NCBI GenBank assembly: GCA_036703075.1
Contig: DATNPT010000463.1
Location: 1 to 12,848, forward strand
Reading direction: 5' to 3'
Source of the DNA: Chroococcales cyanobacterium
Lineage (GTDB): Bacteria > Cyanobacteriota > Cyanobacteriia > Cyanobacteriales > Coleofasciculaceae
Length of the DNA: 12,848 bases
This document shows, one piece after another, positions 2,382-12,848 of the stretch. Numbering within the stretch: the first letter of the stretch is position 1; every line of letters starts with the position of its first letter. Below the pieces are notes generated by a model. The model searched no databases. It was not told the DNA's origin and saw nothing but the letters and a program-made list of their open reading frames with translations. Made by a program: the position numbers and the translations under genes.

Positions 2382-2858
2382 TCAACCCTCTGACGGTGGG
2401 GGCAGTATCTCTATTCCCTGCTTCTTAGAGACCGCGACAATGTGATCAATGTCTAATGTGCCTGTGGCATTGAGCTTGGACAAATCCTCGAAAAAGTTCT
2501 CGATGCCTGCGGGGACGAAGAGGAGGAGCATTCTCGCGGATGTAGTGCCGATGTTTTTGAAAGAATGCGGAATGCCTTTGGGAATGGTCATAAACCAACC
2601 TGCGGTTCCCCTCAAAGCACGATCGCCAACTTGAAAGGCAAAGGTTCCCTCCAACACGTAAAACGCTTCGGCTTCGCGCCGATGCAGATGCATGGGTGGT
2701 CCCACTTGCGGTTCAACAATGACTTCAATTAACGTGTAGGCACCGTCTGTATCAGCGCTAACCGCTTTCAAAATATGTGTCTCCCCCGGCTGTACCTGGA
2801 GTACTCTGCCTTCGCTGGGTGAAACGGCAAGGCTCTTCAAGAAGTTTTCCATGATCAT
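2382..2858 (-). CDS. Cupin domain protein (cupin_2 type, small single-domain)
   Basis: Both cupin motifs are present. Motif 1 is GPPMHLHRREAEAFYVLEG (G..HxH..E..G). Motif 2, GWFMTIPKGIPHSFKN, fits G-x5-P-x-G-x2-H-x3-N exactly. GGGAGG at 2859-2864 (minus strand) abuts the first ATG (2858) and sits 6 nt before the second in-frame ATG (2852), so the real start is probably 2852. The gene lies 14 nt downstream of the hydrolase stop and is likely co-transcribed with it. Confidence 0.9.
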   Translation of the reverse strand: MIMENFLKSLAVSPSEGRVLQVQPGETHILKAVSADTDGAYTLIEVIVEPQVGPPMHLHRREAEAFYVLEGTFAFQVGDRALRGTAGWFMTIPKGIPHSFKNIGTTSARMLLLFVPAGIENFFEDLSKLNATGTLDIDHIVAVSKKQGIEILPPPSEG

Positions 2859-2872
2859 CCTCCCTGGATGGA

Positions 2873-3715
2873 TTAGTTTTGTCGGGATAAGAACTGCAAA
2901 ACTTGTCGGTTAAACTTTTCCGGATTTTCGATGAACATGAAATGTCCACCACCTTCTGTCTCTTCAAAGATTTCCAATTCAGAGTTCGGAATGCTTTGAT
3001 GAATCCAGGCTTGCGATCGCCACGGAATAATACTTTTTCTGCCGCTCACAATCAGAGTTGGCTGACGAATCCTGACAATTTGATCGCGCCAGTCCATATG
3101 AGCATGGTTGTATAGCAGGGTTGCTGCGATCGCCCGTGGCAAGCGTTGATTGCACTCGACAATCCACTCAAATTGATCTTTCGACATCGTTGGTGTAACC
3201 ATTGACGCCAGAAGGTTGCGGGTAAATTCTGATGCTTCACAACTCTCTAGCGCCTGTACGGAGGCATTGAGCTGTTCAGCAGTAAATACTGCCCCGGACT
3301 CTGCTATTTCTTGAGCATTCCAATGTGATCTTGAAACGACCAACGGAGATTGATCAACGAACACTAATCGATCAATTTCATTGAATCCAAACAGATCGAG
3401 ATAGCTCCAGATTAGGGAACACCCCATTGAGTGACCGAATAGGTGTGTGTTTTTAAGTTGCAAAGCACTGATTAATTCATGAATATCTTGAGCCAAGCGA
3501 GCGATACGATAACCAAACGTCACTTTTTCTGACTCACCGTGTCCTCGTGGATCGATTGCGATCACAGAGTAACGTTCGGCAAAAACGGGAATTTGATATT
3601 TGAATTGTTCCGCTGACTGTGACCAACCGGGAATCATCACGATCGGTTGTCCTTTGCCTGCACTGATGTAGCTCAATCGAGTCCCATCAGACGTTTTGAA
3701 TGTTTTGCGTTGCAT
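2873..3715 (-). CDS. Alpha/beta-fold hydrolase
   Basis: Nucleophile elbow GHSMGC (GxSxG), an early IVMIPGWSQS and PRGHGESE segment, and a C-terminal GGGHFMFIENPEKFN (catalytic His region). A Shine-Dalgarno-like AAGAGGA sits 4 nt upstream of the ATG. Confidence 0.92.
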   Translation of the reverse strand: MQRKTFKTSDGTRLSYISAGKGQPIVMIPGWSQSAEQFKYQIPVFAERYSVIAIDPRGHGESEKVTFGYRIARLAQDIHELISALQLKNTHLFGHSMGCSLIWSYLDLFGFNEIDRLVFVDQSPLVVSRSHWNAQEIAESGAVFTAEQLNASVQALESCEASEFTRNLLASMVTPTMSKDQFEWIVECNQRLPRAIAATLLYNHAHMDWRDQIVRIRQPTLIVSGRKSIIPWRSQAWIHQSIPNSELEIFEETEGGGHFMFIENPEKFNRQVLQFLSRQN

Positions 3716-5636: not shown

Positions 5637-8600
5637 ATGGATTCCAACCCATCAAAATCTGGACGGAGGAGATCCGCTTCTGGGCGAGTTCGAGGAGTCA
5701 TCCTATCGCCTCAGGGATGGCAGAAATTTCAGACGGCAAAACAACGGGCGGAATCGGACGAAATCTGGGGGAAGCACTTCACCCAGGAAGATCTCAGCGA
5801 TCGCACTGGACTCTCTCTTAATACTCTTTCCCGCCTTTTTAAGCGCGAACAAGGGGTCGATCGACAGACAGTGGAGTACCTCTTCCGGGCGTTTGGGCTG
5901 GAATTAACGCAGGCAGACCTAACATCCTCTGAAGCGTCGGAGATCCACCGGATAAATCTCCAGCAAGACTGGGACATTGCGGTAGATGCCTCAGTGTTTT
6001 ATGGGCGTGAGGCAGAACTAGCGAACCTGTGGCAGTGGGTCGTGTCTGAGCACTGTCGCGTCGTTGGGGTGTTGGGCATTGGCGGCATTGGCAAAAGTAC
6101 GATCGCGGTCAAGGCTGCCCTTCAGATGCAAGCAGAATTTGAGATCGTCGTGTGGCGATCGCTTGCCAACGCACCACCGTTGGACGAACTCCTGTCAAGT
6201 CTGCTGAAATTTCTCATGCCGCTGTTTGGGGAAGATCCCATCATCCCCACTACGCTCGATCAGCAGCTTTCCAAACTGATGCAATATCTGAGATCGCGGC
6301 GGTGTTTATTGATTTTGGATAATGCTGAAATCATTTTGCAGCATGAACAGGCAGGACAATGGCGATCGGGCTACGAAGGGTACGGACAGTTGCTCAGAGC
6401 CATTGGTGAAACGTCCCATCTCAGTTGTTTGTTGCTGACTACTCGAGAAAAGCCACGGGAATTGGCGCTGATGGAAGGCGTACAGGTGCTAGTCAAATCG
6501 CTGCTCTTACCTGGATTGTCACCCGATGACGGACGTGCCATCTTTCGGCAAAAAGGCGCGTTTACAGGGTCGGAAGCTGAATGGCAAACCCTGATCCATC
6601 ACTACGGCGGTAATCCGCTGGCGTTGAAACTAGTGGCAGCCGCCACTCATGATTTGTTTGATGGCAGCATTCCAGAAGTGTTAGCCTATCTTGCTCAGGG
6701 CATTTATGTTTTTGAAGATATCCGCGATTTACTCAATCGCCAGTTTGAGCGATTGTCTGAAGCTGAACAAAAAATATTGTCCTGGTTTGCGATTCTTCGA
6801 GAACCAGTTACGTTTGCAGAGATTCGAGAACATGTGGTTGATCTTGCCACTCAGCAACAGGTGCCCAATTTGATCAACTCGCTGCTCCGGCGATCGCTAA
6901 TCGAAAAAACAGATGGGTTATTCTTCCTACAACCTGTTGTGATGGAATATGTCACAGAACGATTTGTGCAGCAGATTTGTATCGAATTTGAGACGCAGCA
7001 GCTTAACATTTTGCAAACGCATACTTTATTACAAGTACAGGCAAAAGATTACATTCGAGAGATTCAAACGCGCCTAATTATGCAACATGTGATGGAGCAG
7101 CTTCTATCTCGTTTTGGCAGTGTGGCAGCGATCGAGGCACAGGCAAGGCACTTATTGAGGCAGCAGGGGAAGAAACCAGGATATGTGACAGGCAACCTAA
7201 TTAACCTGCTAGTGCAACTTCAAGTCGATTTGCGTGGTTCAGACTTTTCTGAGTTGGTGGTGCAGCAAGCCGACTTGCGACAGGTTGATTTAGCGGGAGT
7301 CAATTTTCAGAATGTTACGTTCGCCAAATCCATCTTTTCAGAAACCATCGGTATGGCGATGTCGATCGATTTCAGTCCAGATGGTCAAACGATCGCTGTG
7401 GGCGATTCCAGTGGCAATATCTATCTCTGGAATATCACGACAACCCAACTCTTAGCCACTTTTGCAGGCCACGCGGGCTGGGTCTGGTCGGTTGCCTTTA
7501 GCCCTGATGGCAGAATGTTAGCTAGCGGTGCTACTGATAGTTCGATGCGCGTATGGAATGTCCAAACTGGTCGATGCTTGCAGGTGTTCACAGAGCATAC
7601 AGCCTGTGTTCGGTCAGTGCGTTTTAGTCCTGATGGTCAGTGGTTAGCGAGTGGCAGTGAAGACAGAACTGTGCGTGTATGGAATTTGCAAGGCGAATGT
7701 CTTCATTTGTTCAAGGGGCACACCCAAAGTGTTTATTCTGTTCACTTTGCTCCTGATCAGCAAACCTTAGTCAGCAGCAGTAATGATACTGACCTGCGGA
7801 TTTGGAATGTGCATGATGGAAACTGCTTGAGTGTCTTACAGGGGCATACCAGCGGGGTTCATTGTGTGCGATATAGCCCAGACGGTCAACTGCTTGCTAG
7901 CGGTTGCCATGATGGGTCAATTCGACTGTGGAGTGGTCATCGCTCCAACCAGCAACCGTCAAAGCCCAGTTTCACAAATTCCAGTACCAGGCTGCTGCAT
8001 AAACATATCGACTGGATTTGGGACATCGCCTTTAGCCCAGATGGTTGTTTTTTAGCCAGTGCTAGCCGCGATGGCACTCTGCGCGTCTGGAGTGTTCAAG
8101 ACGGGCAATCCATCCATAGGCTCGATGATCACACTCGTGATGTTTTTGCGCTTGCGATTAGTGCCGACAGCCAACTATTAGTGAGTGCAGGTCAAGACCA
8201 TACGGTGCGACTATGGAGTTTGCCGAGTGGACGAAGCCTCAAAACATTGCGTGGCTATACCAGTGGCATTCATTCCCTGAGCCTCAGTCCAGATAACCAA
8301 ATGCTTGCTAGTAGTAAGCAGGATGAAACCATCCAGCTGTGGCATTTACAGTTAGATGGCACTCTGTCATCGCTTCGCCCCTACAAAACCTTGTCCAACC
8401 TAACCCGTGGGATTTCATCATTAACCAATTTAAGCTTTAGTCCGGATGGTCAAACGCTGGCAATCAATCAACATGATGGCTCAATCGCCGTGTGGCAGAT
8501 ACAAACCGGGCAGTTTGAACGGTGGTCAGCGCATAACATGCCTGTATGGGCAGTACAATTTAGTCCTGGAGGGCAGATTCTGGCAAGCAGTAGTTATGAT

Positions 8601-9257
8601 TGCACCGTCCGACTATGGGATGTGCGAACTCATCATTGTTTGCAGGTGTTACAGGGGCATGAGAGCGGTATTCACGCGATCGCATTTGCCCCCAGTGGTA
8701 AAGGGTTGGCAAGTGGCAGTTTTGATCGCACCATTCGGTTATGGGATGTGCAAACTGGAGCATGTCTGAAGATATTGCAGGGACATATAGGTACAGTTTT
8801 CACACTCTCATTTGAGCGCAGTGGTCAGATCTTAGCAAGCGGCAGTTATGACCAAACCATTCGGTTATGGAATGTGCAAACTGGAGCATGTCTGAAGATA
8901 TTGCAGGGACATACGGGAATTGTGTGGACGCTTGCTATCAGTTCCAATGGTCAGATCTTAGCAAGCGGCAGTGATGACCAAACCATTCGCCTATGGGATC
9001 TGCAAACCGGGCAGTGCCTGCACATCTTGAGCGAACACACGAGTTGGGTCAGATCCGTCATCTTTAGCGGTGATAGCCAACTCTTATTCAGTAGCAGTGA
9101 CGATCACACCATTAAGCTATGGGACGCGCAGACAGGACGCTGCATCAACACGTTGACAGTTGATCGGCTTTATGAACGCATGAATATTCAAGGTGCAACC
9201 GGGCTGACAATGGGTCAGAGAGACATTCTGAGAACATTAGGGGCAATTGAGCATTAA
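5637..9257 (+). CDS. STAND NTPase: N-terminal HTH, NB-ARC (AP-ATPase) domain, pentapeptide repeats, 14 WD40 repeats (Apaf-1-like architecture)
   Basis: HTH-like segment [41 protein letters not shown] (approx nt 5694-5906). NB-ARC signatures: FYGREAEL (hhGRExE), P-loop GIGGIGKST (nt 6075-6101), Walker B LLILDNAE (D at 6318), LLLTTR (TTR/RNBS-B-like) and GGNPLAL (GLPL-like). About 7 pentapeptide units [35 protein letters not shown] (nt 7227-7346). Then 14 units of the type GH...V.SV.FSPDGq.LASGS.D.TiRLWd, enough for two 7-bladed propellers. The tail [25 protein letters not shown] is common in cyanobacterial WD40 proteins. Confidence 0.95.
8704..9081 (+). repeat. Three tandem 126-bp units (WD40 repeats 11-13) with near-identical DNA scaffold segments
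   Basis: 8730-8787 versus 8856-8913 shows 1 mismatch in 58 nt. 8823-8863 versus 8949-8989 shows 1 mismatch in 41 nt. The intervening ~35-nt patches (8788-8822 versus 8914-8948) are strongly divergent. Confidence 0.85.
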
Positions 9258-9632: not shown

Positions 9633-12320
9633 TCAAATGGAGGCAGGGTTACCGGATTGGTTTGTTAGGCCTGTCTCATTCAAAACCCGATCCATGTATT
9701 GCATATTGAAGGCGATCGCAGGCTCAATCCGTCTCACGCTAGCCAGCATGTCATACTTTTCATCGTGTATTTTCCGTGAATGCTCCAACGCACAGGCAGC
9801 AGCGTCTTTGACCTCTTGGCTGGCGTTGTGAGCGCTAAGACTCGTGCTGTACATAATGCGAAGGTGTTGGGGCGGAACGCAAACGCCGAATTCCCGATTA
9901 AACATATTCTTAATCCGCGATCGCCAGGTGTCGCAATCGGCAGGTTTATTGGTGTTGCGCTTAACGAAGAAATTATTGTGCCAAGTCGCGCCTAATACGG
10001 GTCTGCCCCAGTCTAACCAGCGTCGGATGTATTGATAAAGTCGGCTCCCATCCGGAAATTCGTAATCGGGAATCAGCGCCCACCAACCAAATTCCCACTC
10101 CCCAGCGATTGTTTTGCCGATTTTTGAGTCATCAACCATATGGTGGATATAGAAGCCAATTCGGTCTTCGTAGTTTTTCAAAATCCCTTCTTTTTCCAAC
10201 TGTTCTTTACTGCGAAATTGCCCTTCCACGAAACATCCCTCCTTAAAGGTTTCGCCAATTCGCAAGTCGTAGTACGTTCTAGAGCGGCTGGGGAACGCGA
10301 TAACGGGCAAGGCAATCGACAGGAAATTTTGCAATTCTTTAGCGAGACCTGTCTCTCTTCTAGATTTGGCGGTGTAGCCCTTTTTGTGCTGACTAGATTG
10401 GTTGTATAAGATGTACCGATCGCACCGCTTTTTCTGAATCATAACAAGCCTTACCGCGTACCCCCAAGGCAGTATATTCTCATGATTAAGACGAACGGTT
10501 CTAGGTGTCGTCTTATTTTGCGCGCCAAGTTCCGCCTGTTTGTTGAGGAGCCGCCAAAGGATAGGAATCGAATTAGGCGTCGGAAAATCTTCGGTTCCGA
10601 TTTCTTCGCGATACAAAAATTTGGCTATAGCAATTATCAGAGCAATTCGCTTTTGTTTAGAGCCGGGGTGGTTTTCTTTCAGGAACTTTAGATATCTCTC
10701 CACCCTTTTCATGTCTTGATTAGCGCGAAACTGGGCGCGTGTTTTTAACAAAACCTTGAGCGAGGCCAGCTTGTTTATCTGCTCGTCATACTGGTCTAAG
10801 TCAGATTCTTCATCAATGTTATCGATGTCAATCTCTAATTCAGGAATTAGTTTGGACTTAGTTATCAGTAGTTCAAGTGCCAATTCTTCGAGTGAAATTC
10901 CTTCATACCTGTGCAGCCACCCAAGAAGCTGCATCAACTGTTCCTCCGTACCGTCTATAGTTCCCTTCACTGCACCTTCGGACTGCCACCATTCCCAAAA
11001 ATTGCGGATCTGGCTATCCAAGGCTTCGTTGATATAATCATCGGGAAATTGTTTAGCGCACAACTGATGTACGGCAACTCTTCTTTCGTGCATTTCTGCA
11101 CCCGGTGTGTGCCTTTTTTTTGTCCGATGTTCCCCGACTTTGCGAATAAGATTAAATTGAATTTCCTCGGTTGAGAAGGCAACAAGTTCAAAGTATCTTT
11201 GGCTCTCTGCCCACTCTAGCCATCCCTTAAGCTCGGTTCTAATTTTGCGGTCAATATCTGCCTCAGTACAGCCATCTTTAAGTTGTTCGGCCGGAATTTT
11301 TTCCAGGTAAGCGATTCCCGCTTTAATTTCATCGGGCGAGGTTCTGGTGCTTTTAGGAGAGGGACCTCCCATAGCTGGTACTAAATAGCGAACGACCGCA
11401 CTCTGAATCTTTCCTACCCCATTGGGCTTGTCAATCGCCTTTAGATGGTCGCAGTACGCCTCATAAATCTGGAGAGACGTGTATGAGCATTTGACCAACT
11501 CATCTTTTCTATCTTGAACACCATCGGCAGCGTCAAGCCAGGGAGGTGCTGGAATTGAATCGGGGATTAGAGGAAGATACCTTTGCTTGCGGCACCAATC
11601 GAGAAAATCTTTCAGTGCGCTTCGCAAACGTGTCCTTTGAGTCAGCGATACCCCGAGCGCTTTCATGGCGACAGTAGCCAACTCCACCGCTTTGTCCAGG
11701 TGTGCCATCGAAACCGTTTCAAGGCACTGGTGAGCTGCATCCATCTCGACACCAGTAAACTGAAGGTGCGTGACCAGCGGACCACCTACTGCTGGAACGA
11801 AATACCTAGCTAACACATTTGTGATGTTATTTTGTTGTTCTCGTCTACCTTCCAAGTGTTTGTGGTACTCAAGGTAGGCGTGTAGTGGAGTGGTAGGCTC
11901 TAAATCGTACTCGCCCAGGTTCCTCAGTGGGATTTTGGCGCATGTTTCCTGGGGGATTGGATTATGGGGAGGAGGAAGGTATTCCTCATTAAGTCCCCAG
12001 TCCACGAACTGATGCAGGGCACGTCTTATCCGTTCGCGTTGAGCATCTGAGACTTTTAGCTCGGATAGTGTTTTGGTTGCGTGTTCGTGGCAAGAAGCCA
12101 GTTGAGCGAGCGATACCTCGCTATTTAGATAATTAAGTGCTGCTTCAATCTCAATTTGAGATAACGGTCTGTACTTTTCAGCATTAGGAATAGGACCCCC
12201 TAAAGAGGGGATGAAGTATTTAATTATCCCACTCCTAAAGTTGTTCATAGCTTCCCGGTCATCTTGTAAGGTTTCCAGGTATCTTGTATAAATTTCATTA
12301 GCCGTTAATTTAGTCTCCAA
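9633..12320 (-). CDS. Giant (895 aa) atypical tyrosine recombinase-like protein: triplicated N-terminal helical module, SAM-like core-binding region, C-terminal catalytic domain
   Basis: The 2.7-kb ORF starts at TTG, with AAGGAG (12330-12335, minus) 9 nt upstream. C-terminal pattern in canonical order: IAFPSRSRTYYDL (R679/R681), DSKIGKTIAGEWEF (K733/K736), PPQHLRIMYSTSL (R821, codon 9858-9860), LEHSRKIHDEKYD (H847 at 9780-9782, Y856 at 9753-9755, H-to-Y spacing 9). aa 6-378 form three tandem related modules, each with (K/R)Y(F/L)(I/V)P(S/A)xGGP. That it is a gene is near certain. The family assignment rests on motifs read by eye only. Confidence 0.8.
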   Translation of the reverse strand: METKLTANEIYTRYLETLQDDREAMNNFRSGIIKYFIPSLGGPIPNAEKYRPLSQIEIEAALNYLNSEVSLAQLASCHEHATKTLSELKVSDAQRERIRRALHQFVDWGLNEEYLPPPHNPIPQETCAKIPLRNLGEYDLEPTTPLHAYLEYHKHLEGRREQQNNITNVLARYFVPAVGGPLVTHLQFTGVEMDAAHQCLETVSMAHLDKAVELATVAMKALGVSLTQRTRLRSALKDFLDWCRKQRYLPLIPDSIPAPPWLDAADGVQDRKDELVKCSYTSLQIYEAYCDHLKAIDKPNGVGKIQSAVVRYLVPAMGGPSPKSTRTSPDEIKAGIAYLEKIPAEQLKDGCTEADIDRKIRTELKGWLEWAESQRYFELVAFSTEEIQFNLIRKVGEHRTKKRHTPGAEMHERRVAVHQLCAKQFPDDYINEALDSQIRNFWEWWQSEGAVKGTIDGTEEQLMQLLGWLHRYEGISLEELALELLITKSKLIPELEIDIDNIDEESDLDQYDEQINKLASLKVLLKTRAQFRANQDMKRVERYLKFLKENHPGSKQKRIALIIAIAKFLYREEIGTEDFPTPNSIPILWRLLNKQAELGAQNKTTPRTVRLNHENILPWGYAVRLVMIQKKRCDRYILYNQSSQHKKGYTAKSRRETGLAKELQNFLSIALPVIAFPSRSRTYYDLRIGETFKEGCFVEGQFRSKEQLEKEGILKNYEDRIGFYIHHMVDDSKIGKTIAGEWEFGWWALIPDYEFPDGSRLYQYIRRWLDWGRPVLGATWHNNFFVKRNTNKPADCDTWRSRIKNMFNREFGVCVPPQHLRIMYSTSLSAHNASQEVKDAAACALEHSRKIHDEKYDMLASVRRIEPAIAFNMQYMDRVLNETGLTNQSGNPASI

Positions 12321-12329
12321 AATTAGAAT

Positions 12330-12335
12330 CTCCTT
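12330..12335 (-). promoter_or_regulatory. Shine-Dalgarno sequence AAGGAG for the 895-aa ORF
   Basis: The minus strand reads AAGGAG-ATTCTAATT-TTG, giving a 9-nt spacer to the TTG at 12320-12318. The next in-frame ATG is codon 25 and has no comparable SD. Confidence 0.6.
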
Positions 12336-12350
12336 GTTATTATTTACTGA

Positions 12351-12668
12351 GTTTCTAATTGTCGTATAAGCTATAGATAAATTGCCAACAAAAAAGAACT
12401 ATACGTATAGTTCAAAATTTGAATATTTGGTTTTAATTTTATTTAATTATACGACAAAAATGTTTCTAATTTACAGACTATTTTGATGATGTTGAGTTAG
12501 TAGCACAACAATCCAACATTTTGGGATGAGGGACAAAGGTCAGAACTCTTGTCTAATAAGGGTTTTAGCTTTTAAACCATCTCTTATCTCAAGGAAATGT
12601 CGTATAAGAATGTCGTATAGTTATACGACACCTTATACGACTCATCTCCTTCGTCGTATACGTATAGT
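12351..12668. repeat. Array of GTCGTATA(A/G) motifs in both orientations; candidate recombinase or regulator binding sites
   Basis: Exact GTCGTATA occurs at 12361, 12599, 12612 and 12653. Exact TATACGAC occurs at 12448-12455, 12622-12629 and 12634-12641. The 10-mer GTCGTATAAG is identical at 12361-12370, 12599-12608 and, in reverse, 12632-12641. GTCGTATA-GT-TATACGAC forms an 8+8 inverted pair at 12612-12629. The related CGTATAG/CTATACG half-sites occur in the palindrome at 12396-12413 and at 12661-12667. The motif was not seen elsewhere in the window. Confidence 0.85.
12396..12413. repeat. Perfect 18-bp palindrome GAACTATACGTATAGTTC
   Basis: The sequence is exactly self-complementary. It lies 76-93 nt upstream of the start codon of the 895-aa ORF. 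Its inner 12 bp, TATACGTATAGT (12400-12411), recurs at 12657-12668. Confidence 0.95.
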
Positions 12669-12848
12669 CTCAATGCTTTTGTATTAGCTTTTCGGTTGTT
12701 TTTTGTTAATAATTAGGGCTTGCTGCGAAAAGCGGAAACCCTGAGCTATCAATAGGTTGAGCGGTATTGAAAGTTGCTCAACTCCAAGGCAATCAGGTAA
12801 AATCCAACAAAACCCTTGCACCTCCACCAGGGAAAATGTACCGGAAAG

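Follow-up and report, generated by a model that had tools for sequence, protein, structure and literature searches.

Tyrosine recombinases that act on a multi-site target beside their own gene are already known, and the closest known design to the locus described here appears to be that of TnpI and its site, the IRS of Tn4430. The 116-bp IRS has an IR1–IR2 core with a 4-bp asymmetric spacer and cleavage sites 6 bp apart, and its accessory motifs DR1 and DR2 share one 9-bp sequence with the core motifs, bind extra TnpI subunits, and have been proposed to impose resolution selectivity (PMC2847244). We analyzed a 12,848-bp stretch of DNA from a Chroococcales cyanobacterium (contig DATNPT010000463.1 of assembly GCA_036703075.1, hereafter the window), in which an array of the short motif GTCGTATA lies directly upstream of a gene encoding an 895-amino-acid (aa) protein that resembles tyrosine recombinases. 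This motif is non-random, selectively conserved, linked to the gene family, and co-varies with the protein clade. With moderate confidence, we suggest that the array is a cis-acting, multi-site recombination locus of the adjacent enzyme that overlaps the enzyme's own expression signals.

The likeness to TnpI and the IRS lies in the position of the site directly upstream of the recombinase gene and in the apparent use of one short motif both in accessory copies and in an inverted core pair whose spacer is asymmetric and very short. TnpI is small (~280 aa) and sits within a Tn3-family transposon, whereas the protein studied here is 895 aa long and has a long helical insert as well as three additional N-terminal modules, and its gene is plasmid-borne without an adjacent tnpA, with relatives on plasmid backbones. 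No Tn3-type transposase was detected in the window, where the only transposase is an IS1182-family gene ~10 kb away. Spread over ~310 bp in two clusters, the array holds at least seven copies and also a second type of palindrome, compared with four motifs in 116 bp, and relatives carry a conserved gene for a ribbon–helix–helix (RHH) partner. New to this kind of system are the one to three helical N-terminal modules with the long helical insert, the RHH partner, a site of this size arranged in two clusters, and the cyanobacterial-plasmid niche.

Other described systems share fewer features with this locus. Among Xer systems (cer, psi, and difH), XerH is the closest solved fold to the 895-aa protein, at weak E-values, and the sites are alike in having a ~28-bp core of two arms and a short centre, in being single on each replicon, and in having accessory DNA to one side of the core, ~150–200 bp long, that would serve as a topological filter. 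In Xer systems this accessory DNA is bound by host PepA with ArgR or ArcA and does not consist of recombinase-motif copies, and Xer proteins are chromosomal, ~300–360 aa long, and of a similarity to the 895-aa protein that Pfam does not detect. Cre, from the P1 plasmid prophage, is likewise a plasmid-borne tyrosine recombinase with a single site near its own gene, and it resolves dimers; a loxP arm, ..TTCGTATA, happens to resemble GTCGTATA. Unlike the array, loxP is a bare 13+8+13 site without accessory copies; Cre has 343 aa, and we found no evidence of homology to it beyond the superfamily. Lambda integrase and attP offer an extra N-terminal DNA-binding part and a ~250–300-bp site with binding sites far from the core. 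In lambda, arm-type sequences are distinct from core-type ones and are bound by a small beta-sheet domain, whereas here one motif is reused and the extra modules are helical repeats; we saw no attB or integrated form, and homologues are on free plasmids. The core-type plus arm-type layout to which an initial annotation of this DNA had likened the array was not borne out in the lambda sense, as one motif serves both the core-like pair and the extra copies. Finally, omega of pSM19035, ParG, CopG, and Arc resemble the locus in having a small RHH gene beside direct and inverted short repeats over divergent promoters, but the array described here survives in an RHH-lacking clade and co-varies with the large protein.

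The upstream motif array

The initial annotation had counted seven exact copies of GTCGTATA (four forward, three reverse) and three related half-sites, and our recount agreed with it in numbers and positions. All seven copies in the window fall inside 12361–12660: those on the + strand start at 12361, 12599, 12612, and 12653, those on the − strand occupy 12448–12455, 12622–12629, and 12634–12641, and the three further CTATACG/CGTATAG half-sites lie at 12399, 12404, and 12661. Dinucleotide-preserving shuffles of the whole window yielded a mean of 0.14 copies, with none of 200 shuffles reaching seven, and a search allowing one mismatch returned two more matches elsewhere in the window, a chance level. 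The sequence CTATACGTATA occurred three times against an expectation of 0.00. We rejected a dispersed genomic repeat, as all copies in the window are inside the array. The setting had been described as AT-rich and free of open reading frames (ORFs), and this also held: the ORF listing of the window contains none of at least 60 aa overlapping 12321–12848, and GC content is 0.31–0.34 in the array region vs ~0.48 in the rest of the window. The following features make up the array, starting at the gene-proximal end.

12351–12360, + strand: GTTTCTAATT flank of cluster A, repeated at 12462–12471, with a 9/10 inverted copy at 12321–12330
12359–12370, + strand: gene-proximal copy TTGTCGTATAAG, 41 nt before the start codon, forming the left arm of cluster A
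12396–12413, no strand: second-type palindrome GAACTATACGTATAGTTC, 18 bp and perfect, centre of cluster A
12446–12457, − strand: right arm of cluster A, TTGTCGTATAAT, holding a TATAAT hexamer that faces the gene
12472–12497, no strand: short, conserved inter-cluster spacer element, ..CTCAACATCATCAAAATAGTCTGTA.. on the gene strand
12598–12608, + strand: TGTCGTATAAG, putative accessory copy at the outer side of cluster B, spaced 13 bp from the next one and kept in relatives
12611–12630, no strand: core-like inverted pair TGTCGTATA-GT-TATACGACA, with GTCG/CGAC arms and the AT-rich asymmetric centre TATAGTTATA
12632–12641, − strand: putative outer accessory copy, CTTATACGAC on the + strand, 12 bp from its neighbour and mirroring 12598–12608
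12652–12668, no strand: fifth cluster B copy, GTCGTATA at 12653–12660 on the + strand, kept in relatives

Together with positions 12359–12369, the right arm of cluster A forms a perfect 11-bp inverted repeat, and the fifth copy of cluster B is fused with a second copy of the TATACGTATAG element (12657–12668). Cluster B is a near-symmetric palindrome of four sites (two, dyad, two) centred on 12620/12621. The 18-bp palindrome and the exact 8+8 inverted pair (12612–12629) are where the initial annotation had placed them; the core-like element conserved across the family sits in cluster B, not in the palindrome of cluster A. Both clusters fold better as single strands than shuffles do (z = −3.05 for cluster A and −5.69 for cluster B), which we attribute to their extended imperfect dyad symmetry. 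The GTTTCTAATT flanks and the inverted copy were likewise in place, but their rarity proved marginal (four matches vs 1.04 expected, with 6 of 200 shuffles reaching four); the significance of these repeats is uncertain, and they are only partly conserved in relatives. We rejected a miniature inverted-repeat transposable element with target-site duplication because the inverted repeats do not directly abut the GTTTCTAATT repeats, cluster B holds the same motif again, and motif positions are conserved in relatives. Promoter and terminator scans gave results no better than shuffles, and an Rfam scan of 12200–12848 returned a single sub-threshold microRNA match. The TATAAT hexamer in the right arm of cluster A may act as a −10 element.

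Conservation in close relatives

We aligned the upstream region of the window with those of three close relatives, loci L001, L003, and L009, whose proteins are 75–87% identical to that of the window. Motif positions stood out as conserved islands amid diverged DNA: across the four sequences, 87 of 101 site columns were invariant (86%) vs 96 of 275 non-site columns (35%; Fisher p = 1e-19), which answers the initial annotation's call for conserved motif positions at syntenic loci. The putative accessory copies at 12599, 12634, and 12653 in cluster B and at 12361 and 12448 in cluster A were all kept in relatives. The gene-proximal copy (12359–12370) is kept in L001 and L003 and carries one substitution in L009, and it overlaps the called ATG start in all three. 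The same three loci retain the GAACTATACGTATAGTTC palindrome, which is near-identical in L006 (GAACTATGCGTATAGTT), and the TATAAT hexamer. The spacer element at 12472–12497 is kept in the window, L001, L003, L009, and L006, and a similar sequence, CACATCGTCAAAG, occurs in L011.

Two more distant loci, L006 and L092 (68% identical protein), retain the layout and central palindrome of cluster A, and in both, the two arms of the cluster have switched together from GTCGTATAAG to GTTAGATA(A/G)G. Every relative examined keeps some upstream repeat or palindrome except L010, a deletion variant that shares the TTG start codon and AAGGAG Shine–Dalgarno sequence of the window gene. Its homology to the window ends exactly at the outer edge of the gene-proximal motif copy, beside a HIP1 site; compared with window 12351–12361, the deletion at L010:8331–8395 extends from the HIP1 site (GCGATCGC) as far as that edge. 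Both the array and the RHH gene were lost with it, and the recombinase gene was left 64 bp from the next gene. We considered this deletion as a recombination product and rejected the idea, as there is no crossover inside a core.

A second, small motif cluster was found in L001 (1305–1440) at a distance of 1.9 kb from the main array. It is flanked by a truncated Tn3-type transposase gene (DUF4158) on one side and a 298-aa Phage_integrase gene on the other, in a divergent, tnpA-res-tnpI-like arrangement. It holds CAGAAC-TATAGTTATA-CGACAAAA, a cluster-A-type half-site joined to a cluster B core half, with a lone GTCGTATAAG 57 nt away, and may serve as a shared operator or as a secondary or hybrid site of recombination.

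The array across the wider family

At every other family locus examined, the upstream region is long (330–1360 bp), AT-rich, and ORF-poor and carries an inverted pair of short motifs. An inverted pair with a short asymmetric spacer, as in the IRS core, lies at 12611–12630 in the window, and an upstream inverted motif pair was present in all 12 loci compared. Five of these pairs compare as follows.

Window (gene strand): left arm GGTGTCG, centre TATAACTATA, right arm CGACATT
L021: left arm AAAACCTTG, centre TATAACTATA, right arm CAAGGTTTT
L019: left arm AAAACCTTG, centre AATAACTATT, right arm CAAGGTTTT
L002 (plasmid D): left arm AAACCTTG, centre TAAGATATCTTA, right arm CAAGGTTT
L013: left arm AAACCTTG, centre CAATATATATTG, right arm CAAGGTTT

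The centre TATAACTATA is common to the window and L021, in which the arms are CCTTG/CAAGG; more generally, the arms follow the protein clade, with GTCG in the window clade and CCTTG in a clade of ~40% identity, while this centre is shared. The pair centre is asymmetric in 8 of the 12 loci, the window included, which gives the site a direction and is incompatible with a replicated hairpin telomere. Most of the loci have an extra copy close to the pair, which lies 12–13 bp from it in the window, L020, L021, and pANACY.05, and 23 bp from it in L011; the arrangement of two sites, dyad, and two sites recurs in L020; and a distal copy 140–170 bp toward the gene is found in L002, L011, L013, and the window clade. 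Even the 24% identical relative on pANACY.05 has the same layout, with GCGTTCTA-tttat-TAGAACGC followed by TAGAACGC. These phylogenetic footprints, and arms that change with the protein clade, favor the cognate enzyme–site pair that the initial annotation had put forward, which we predict from comparison of sequences. We also found AAAGCTGAAA/GGCTTTTCAG-like elements at 12540–12575 in the window and in L011, L017, L019, and L020; they recur 40–70 bp from the core-like pair, on one or both sides, in many members and could be sites of host bending proteins or part of the recombinase site.

On the complete circular 27-kb plasmid D, the motif is confined to one array. The partner array that the initial annotation suggested looking for, as a second site delimiting an element, did not appear in the window, in the fetched parts of relatives' contigs, or on plasmid D, which weighs against a two-site element. 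Of the 66 matches to GTCGTATANNTATACGAC in a metagenome-wide scan, none encoded a homologue or revealed a partner or attB-like site, and none was array-like save for unrelated tandem repeats on two contigs. These are tandem GTCGTATACGTATACGAC arrays (L062:2020–2170 and L082:480–550) on unrelated contigs without a recombinase homologue, either a coincidence or a different repeat family.

The adjacent 895-aa protein

The gene and the regions of its product are listed below.

9633–12320, − strand: 895-aa tyrosine-recombinase-like gene with a TTG start and a Shine–Dalgarno AAGGAG (complement of 12330–12335) 9 nt upstream
11925–12320, − strand: N-terminal repeat module 1, residues 1–132, all-helical
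11535–11924, − strand: N-terminal repeat module 2, residues 133–262, delimited from hhalign and the AF2 model
11166–11483, − strand: N-terminal repeat module 3, residues 280–385, the sole module in ~600-aa relatives
10476–11078, − strand: core-binding-like helical region and long helical linker, residues 415–615, with the invariant motif LGWLHR
9666–10475, − strand: catalytic domain, residues 616–885, with candidate R679, K733, R821, H847, and nucleophile Y856 (codon 9753–9755)

The protein is a divergent tyrosine recombinase, judging from its sequence and predicted fold. In an alignment of 137 family members, the candidate catalytic residues are near-invariant (R679 in 137, K733 in 135, R821 in 136, H847 in 129, and Y856 in 134), so the enzyme looks active; the first His of the usual HxxR is not conserved. 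The residues follow the Arg-Lys-(His)-Arg-His/Trp-Tyr order and spacing of tyrosine recombinases, with 26 residues from R821 to H847 and 9 from H847 to Y856, where the corresponding spacings in Cre are 23 and 9. We found no Pfam or NCBIfam match for the 895-aa protein, and PDB sequence searches with it and with the family profile returned nothing significant. PF00589 is absent above the Pfam threshold from the window protein and its close relatives, and only three distant relatives carry it (P0029–P0031), which match the C-terminal 481 aa of the window protein (phmmer E ~1e-8), so the link to PF00589 is transitive rather than direct.

The full-length AF2 model (pTM 0.37) gave only noise in fold searches, so the C-terminal half was modelled on its own (residues 415–895, pLDDT 83). 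The top five PDB matches of this model were XerH and Tn1549 Int (probability 0.54–0.97, with weak E-values of 0.05–0.2), and the top BFVD matches were viral tyrosine recombinases or integrases (probability 0.98–1.0, E ≥ 1e-3); no protelomerase appeared among the matches in either database. The Foldseek matches to XerH cover both the catalytic domain and the core-binding-like region, which also has a weak profile match to an integrase N-terminal domain (3nrw, E = 0.11). The call of a recombinase-like neighbor in the initial annotation thus stands on the conserved R, K, R, H, and Y, the link to PF00589 proteins, and the XerH- and integrase-like folds. The three repeated N-terminal modules that it described were also confirmed, with hhalign probabilities of 99.9% for module 1 vs 2 (E = 1.5e-37) and 99.7% for module 1 vs 3, and the helices of module 1 were modelled with a pLDDT of ~80–90.

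The protein family and its plasmids

We identified 19 close homologues of the 895-aa protein, all cyanobacterial and all named hypothetical. A family profile search of 1.84 billion representatives recovered 591 cluster representatives (50% identity), 215 of them at E ≤ 1e-30; most members have ~600 aa and match only profile positions ~282–876, and the named ones are hypothetical proteins of Nostoc, Microcoleus, and Spirirestis. Two far longer relatives, P0128 and P0152 (1369–1382 aa), match the profile in four to five separate stretches and may be tandem fusions or carriers of extra modules. At L092:803–3531, on a 25-kb contig, a homologue of the L006 type is broken into two ORFs (574 aa and 322 aa) by either a frameshift or stop (a possible pseudogene) or a sequencing error. 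The family was absent from viral contigs, a scan of species-representative genomes returned only three loci, and our literature search found no published description of the protein family or the array.

A translated search of plasmid records placed full-length homologues on the 27-kb plasmid D of Trichormus variabilis ATCC 29413 (plasmid D protein WP_016562540). Plasmids of Calothrix, Anabaena cylindrica, Nostoc, Aulosira, Leptolyngbya, and Oscillatoria carry shorter relatives, some annotated as integrase. Query residues 287–869 are matched by the 619-aa "integrase" of pANACY.05, and one Geminocystis strain has four different plasmids with one paralogue each. Both metagenomic and genomic contexts of homologues were plasmid-like, with genes for ParA, ParG, toxin–antitoxin, and restriction–modification systems and for primase–helicase proteins of the D5_N/DUF5906, DUF3987, and DUF3854 types, and 12 of 13 plasmids with homologues were typed as non-mobilizable. 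The record of pANACY.05 (L088, NC_020056.1) is flagged linear, with the integrase gene 361 bp from one end and an RHH gene at the other; its termini are not inverted repeats, so an unclosed circle is more likely than genuine linearity.

Elsewhere in the window, a 1206-aa protein with 13 WD40 repeats in its C-terminal half is encoded tail-to-tail with the recombinase-like gene (5637–9257, + strand), and its N-terminal part weakly matches a tetratricopeptide repeat protein of the FxSxx-COOH system and the SARP-family regulator AfsR. The IS1182-family transposase gene (NCBIfam NF033551, E = 1e-99) occupies 99–1814 on the + strand, at the opposite contig end.

A ribbon–helix–helix partner

In L001, L003, and L009, a small RHH gene (Pfam RHH_1, E = 3e-4) diverges from the recombinase gene on the far side of the array, and a divergent RHH gene is found likewise in pANACY.05, Calothrix p9, and two Geminocystis plasmids. 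The RHH proteins of these loci are mutually homologous (pairwise E 1e-4 to 1e-11) across the wider family, suggesting that the pairing of RHH protein and recombinase is old. The genes lie at L001:2802–3068(−), L003:9340–9609(−), L009 about 2840–3110(−), L088:20306–20633(−), L089:2315–2512(−), L090:1569–1814(−), and L091:329–520(−); the proteins have a basic N-terminal tail, the gene pair is not annotated as such, and the RHH gene of L009 is uncalled. After the RHH gene comes a conserved protein of 87–96 aa (L001:2424–2687(−), L009:2525–2815(−), and L010:8053–8331(−)) with the motif ..SPV.LP..FAGNE...MTK.ELETFID.RW.. and no assigned function, whose gene abuts the recombinase gene directly in L010. 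The last 180 bp of the window beyond the array have no homology to the RHH gene.

The RHH protein is a candidate in relatives and may be an alternative or additional binder of the array. Palindromes of the TATACGTATA type were seen only in the window clade, where an RHH gene also adjoins the array, and in L001, L003, and L009, a TATACGTATAG/TATACGTATA-type element lies ~15 nt from the start codon of the RHH gene, making these palindromes candidate RHH sites at which binding is possible. The clade of ~40% identity has no adjacent RHH gene, and the complete plasmid D has no RHH homologue at all; this clade nevertheless keeps the array, which points to the large protein as the common denominator.

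Proposed function of the array

We suggest that the array and the adjacent protein form a cognate protein–DNA pair, since the array is conserved, co-varies with the protein, and is the sole repeat tied to the gene, and since the catalytic set is kept. The adjacent protein is probably the binder, strand exchange probably takes place at the array, and its role is probably multimer resolution. The inverted pair at 12611–12630 would be the crossover core, at which two protomers would bind the GTCG and CGAC arms and swap strands within the AT-rich asymmetric TATAGTTATA. The copies at 12598–12608, 12632–12641, and 12653–12660 would serve as accessory sites for more protomers or for the three extra N-terminal modules, as would the two cluster A copies (12359–12457) ~165 bp nearer the gene, and in relatives, the divergently encoded small RHH protein may also bind the array. 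Such an assembly would restrict recombination to directly repeated copies on one molecule, the selectivity logic of plasmid multimer or cointegrate resolution as in TnpI/IRS and Xer at cer or psi, and the presence of one array per plasmid fits this role. The bound array would also repress the gene, as two copies overlap the TATAAT hexamer and the ribosome-binding-site/start-codon region; this overlap fits autoregulation, and the array probably doubles as the enzyme's operator.

Several observations weigh against this interpretation. L006 and L092 are without cluster B, and L010, whose protein is 90% identical, is without any array in its 11.6-kb contig. We did not find a natural recombinant that crossed over within the core, and the fold-search E-values are weak (0.05 vs PDB and 1e-3 vs BFVD). 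Several host plasmids also encode an ordinary Xer-like recombinase of ~290 aa, a possible multimer resolvase. The motifs of the core-like pair are 8–9 bp long and just 2 bp apart, and its exact arms and overlap region are not assignable from sequence. The mixed-orientation spacing of 12–13 bp also fits cooperative RHH dimers, an RHH gene is the ancestral neighbor, and in the window clade, much of the array could be accounted for by RHH binding.

A bolder version of the proposal, which we consider distinctly unlikely, is that these proteins form an unrecognized class of plasmid-maintenance recombinase, in which the helical modules would hold the accessory copies of the core motif and so supply the enzyme's own topological filter, together with a dedicated RHH partner. 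One module would be ancestral (as in the ~600-aa relatives) and three would be present here, and no host accessory proteins would be needed. In a more radical variant of this idea, the enzyme may nick DNA at the dyad for plasmid replication or transfer rather than carry out conservative recombination.

Alternative interpretations

The array might act only as an operator, bound at divergent promoters by the RHH protein and/or the N-terminal modules of the large protein without strand exchange, which is possible, if somewhat unlikely. The homologous divergent RHH genes of the relatives named above, the overlap of motif copies with the TATAAT hexamer and start region, and the TATACGTATAG element near the RHH start codon all agree with an operator, and short motifs at 12–13-bp spacing suit RHH dimer arrays, which on closely spaced short motifs are known for Arc, CopG, and omega. 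The persistence of the array in the clade without an adjacent RHH gene argues against it, as do the near-invariant catalytic residues, which imply that the enzyme must cut DNA somewhere, and no conserved repeat other than the array is tied to the gene; moreover, resolution sites are built in this way, from an inverted pair around an asymmetric, AT-rich centre with further copies of the same motif as accessory sites. We judge it improbable that the array is a replication origin, with the motif copies as iterons and the large protein as initiator or origin-nicking enzyme. The AT-rich, ORF-free upstream regions of relatives (330–1360 bp) would suit an origin, the gene is near primase/helicase-type replication genes on several plasmids, and the four Geminocystis plasmids have their own paralogue each, as expected of an incompatibility-determining function. 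The motifs are instead 8–11 bp long and of mixed orientation around a dyad, not direct iterons of 17–22 bp in one orientation; the window has no DnaA box; the adjacent gene encodes a protein with the fold and residues of a tyrosine recombinase rather than those of a known Rep family; the plasmids carry separate Rep candidates of the primase–helicase type; and the cumulative GC skew of plasmid D was uninformative.

Highly improbable, in our view, is an invertible, phase-variable switch, in which the recombinase would flip a 77-bp or ~145-bp segment and toggle the divergent genes. Perfect inverted repeats of 10–11 bp do bound short segments beside a tyrosine recombinase gene, but every segment has the same orientation in all four alignable relatives, and the element conserved across the family is a tight inverted pair rather than two separated repeats. 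An origin of transfer (oriT) nicked by the recombinase-like protein as an atypical relaxase, with the RHH protein as relaxosome accessory factor, is hardly plausible: the layout of an RHH gene, an inverted-repeat region, and a large DNA-processing gene resembles mobilization modules, TcpM of Clostridium pCW3 is a precedent for a recombinase-like atypical relaxase, and the typing of nearly all host plasmids as non-mobilizable implies that those plasmids have no known relaxase. Set against this, conjugation genes were seen in no homologue context, L018 carries a MobA/MobL fragment of its own, the recombinase catalytic residues are conserved as a full set, and a dyad core with accessory copies is atypical of a nic site. 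Least credible, and largely refuted, is a linear plasmid with hairpin ends, on which the array would be the site where a protelomerase resolves telomeres. This notion draws on palindromes directly upstream of a large tyrosine-recombinase-like gene, on the TATACGCGCGTATA contained in the centre of N15 telO, and on the linear flag of the pANACY.05 record with its gene close to one end. A replicated hairpin telomere demands a perfect dyad, and most pair centres are asymmetric; the records of plasmid D and of other host plasmids are circular, the two ends of pANACY.05 do not match as inverted copies, and the fold matches include no protelomerase.

Implications for cyanobacterial plasmids

These results define an unnamed but sizeable family (591 cluster representatives) together with its probable DNA target, and the comparative data predict the position of the core, the accessory sites, the catalytic Y856, and the arm bases that determine specificity. 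If the array is indeed the recombination site of the adjacent enzyme, the family would represent a new tyrosine recombinase architecture that combines repeated N-terminal DNA-binding modules with an RHH partner, and its naturally diverged, probably orthogonal recombinase–site pairs (with GTCG-, CCTTG-, and GTTAGATA-type arms) would be available for cyanobacterial genome engineering. It would also account for a module that is conserved in the backbone of small cyanobacterial plasmids, whose maintenance functions are little understood.

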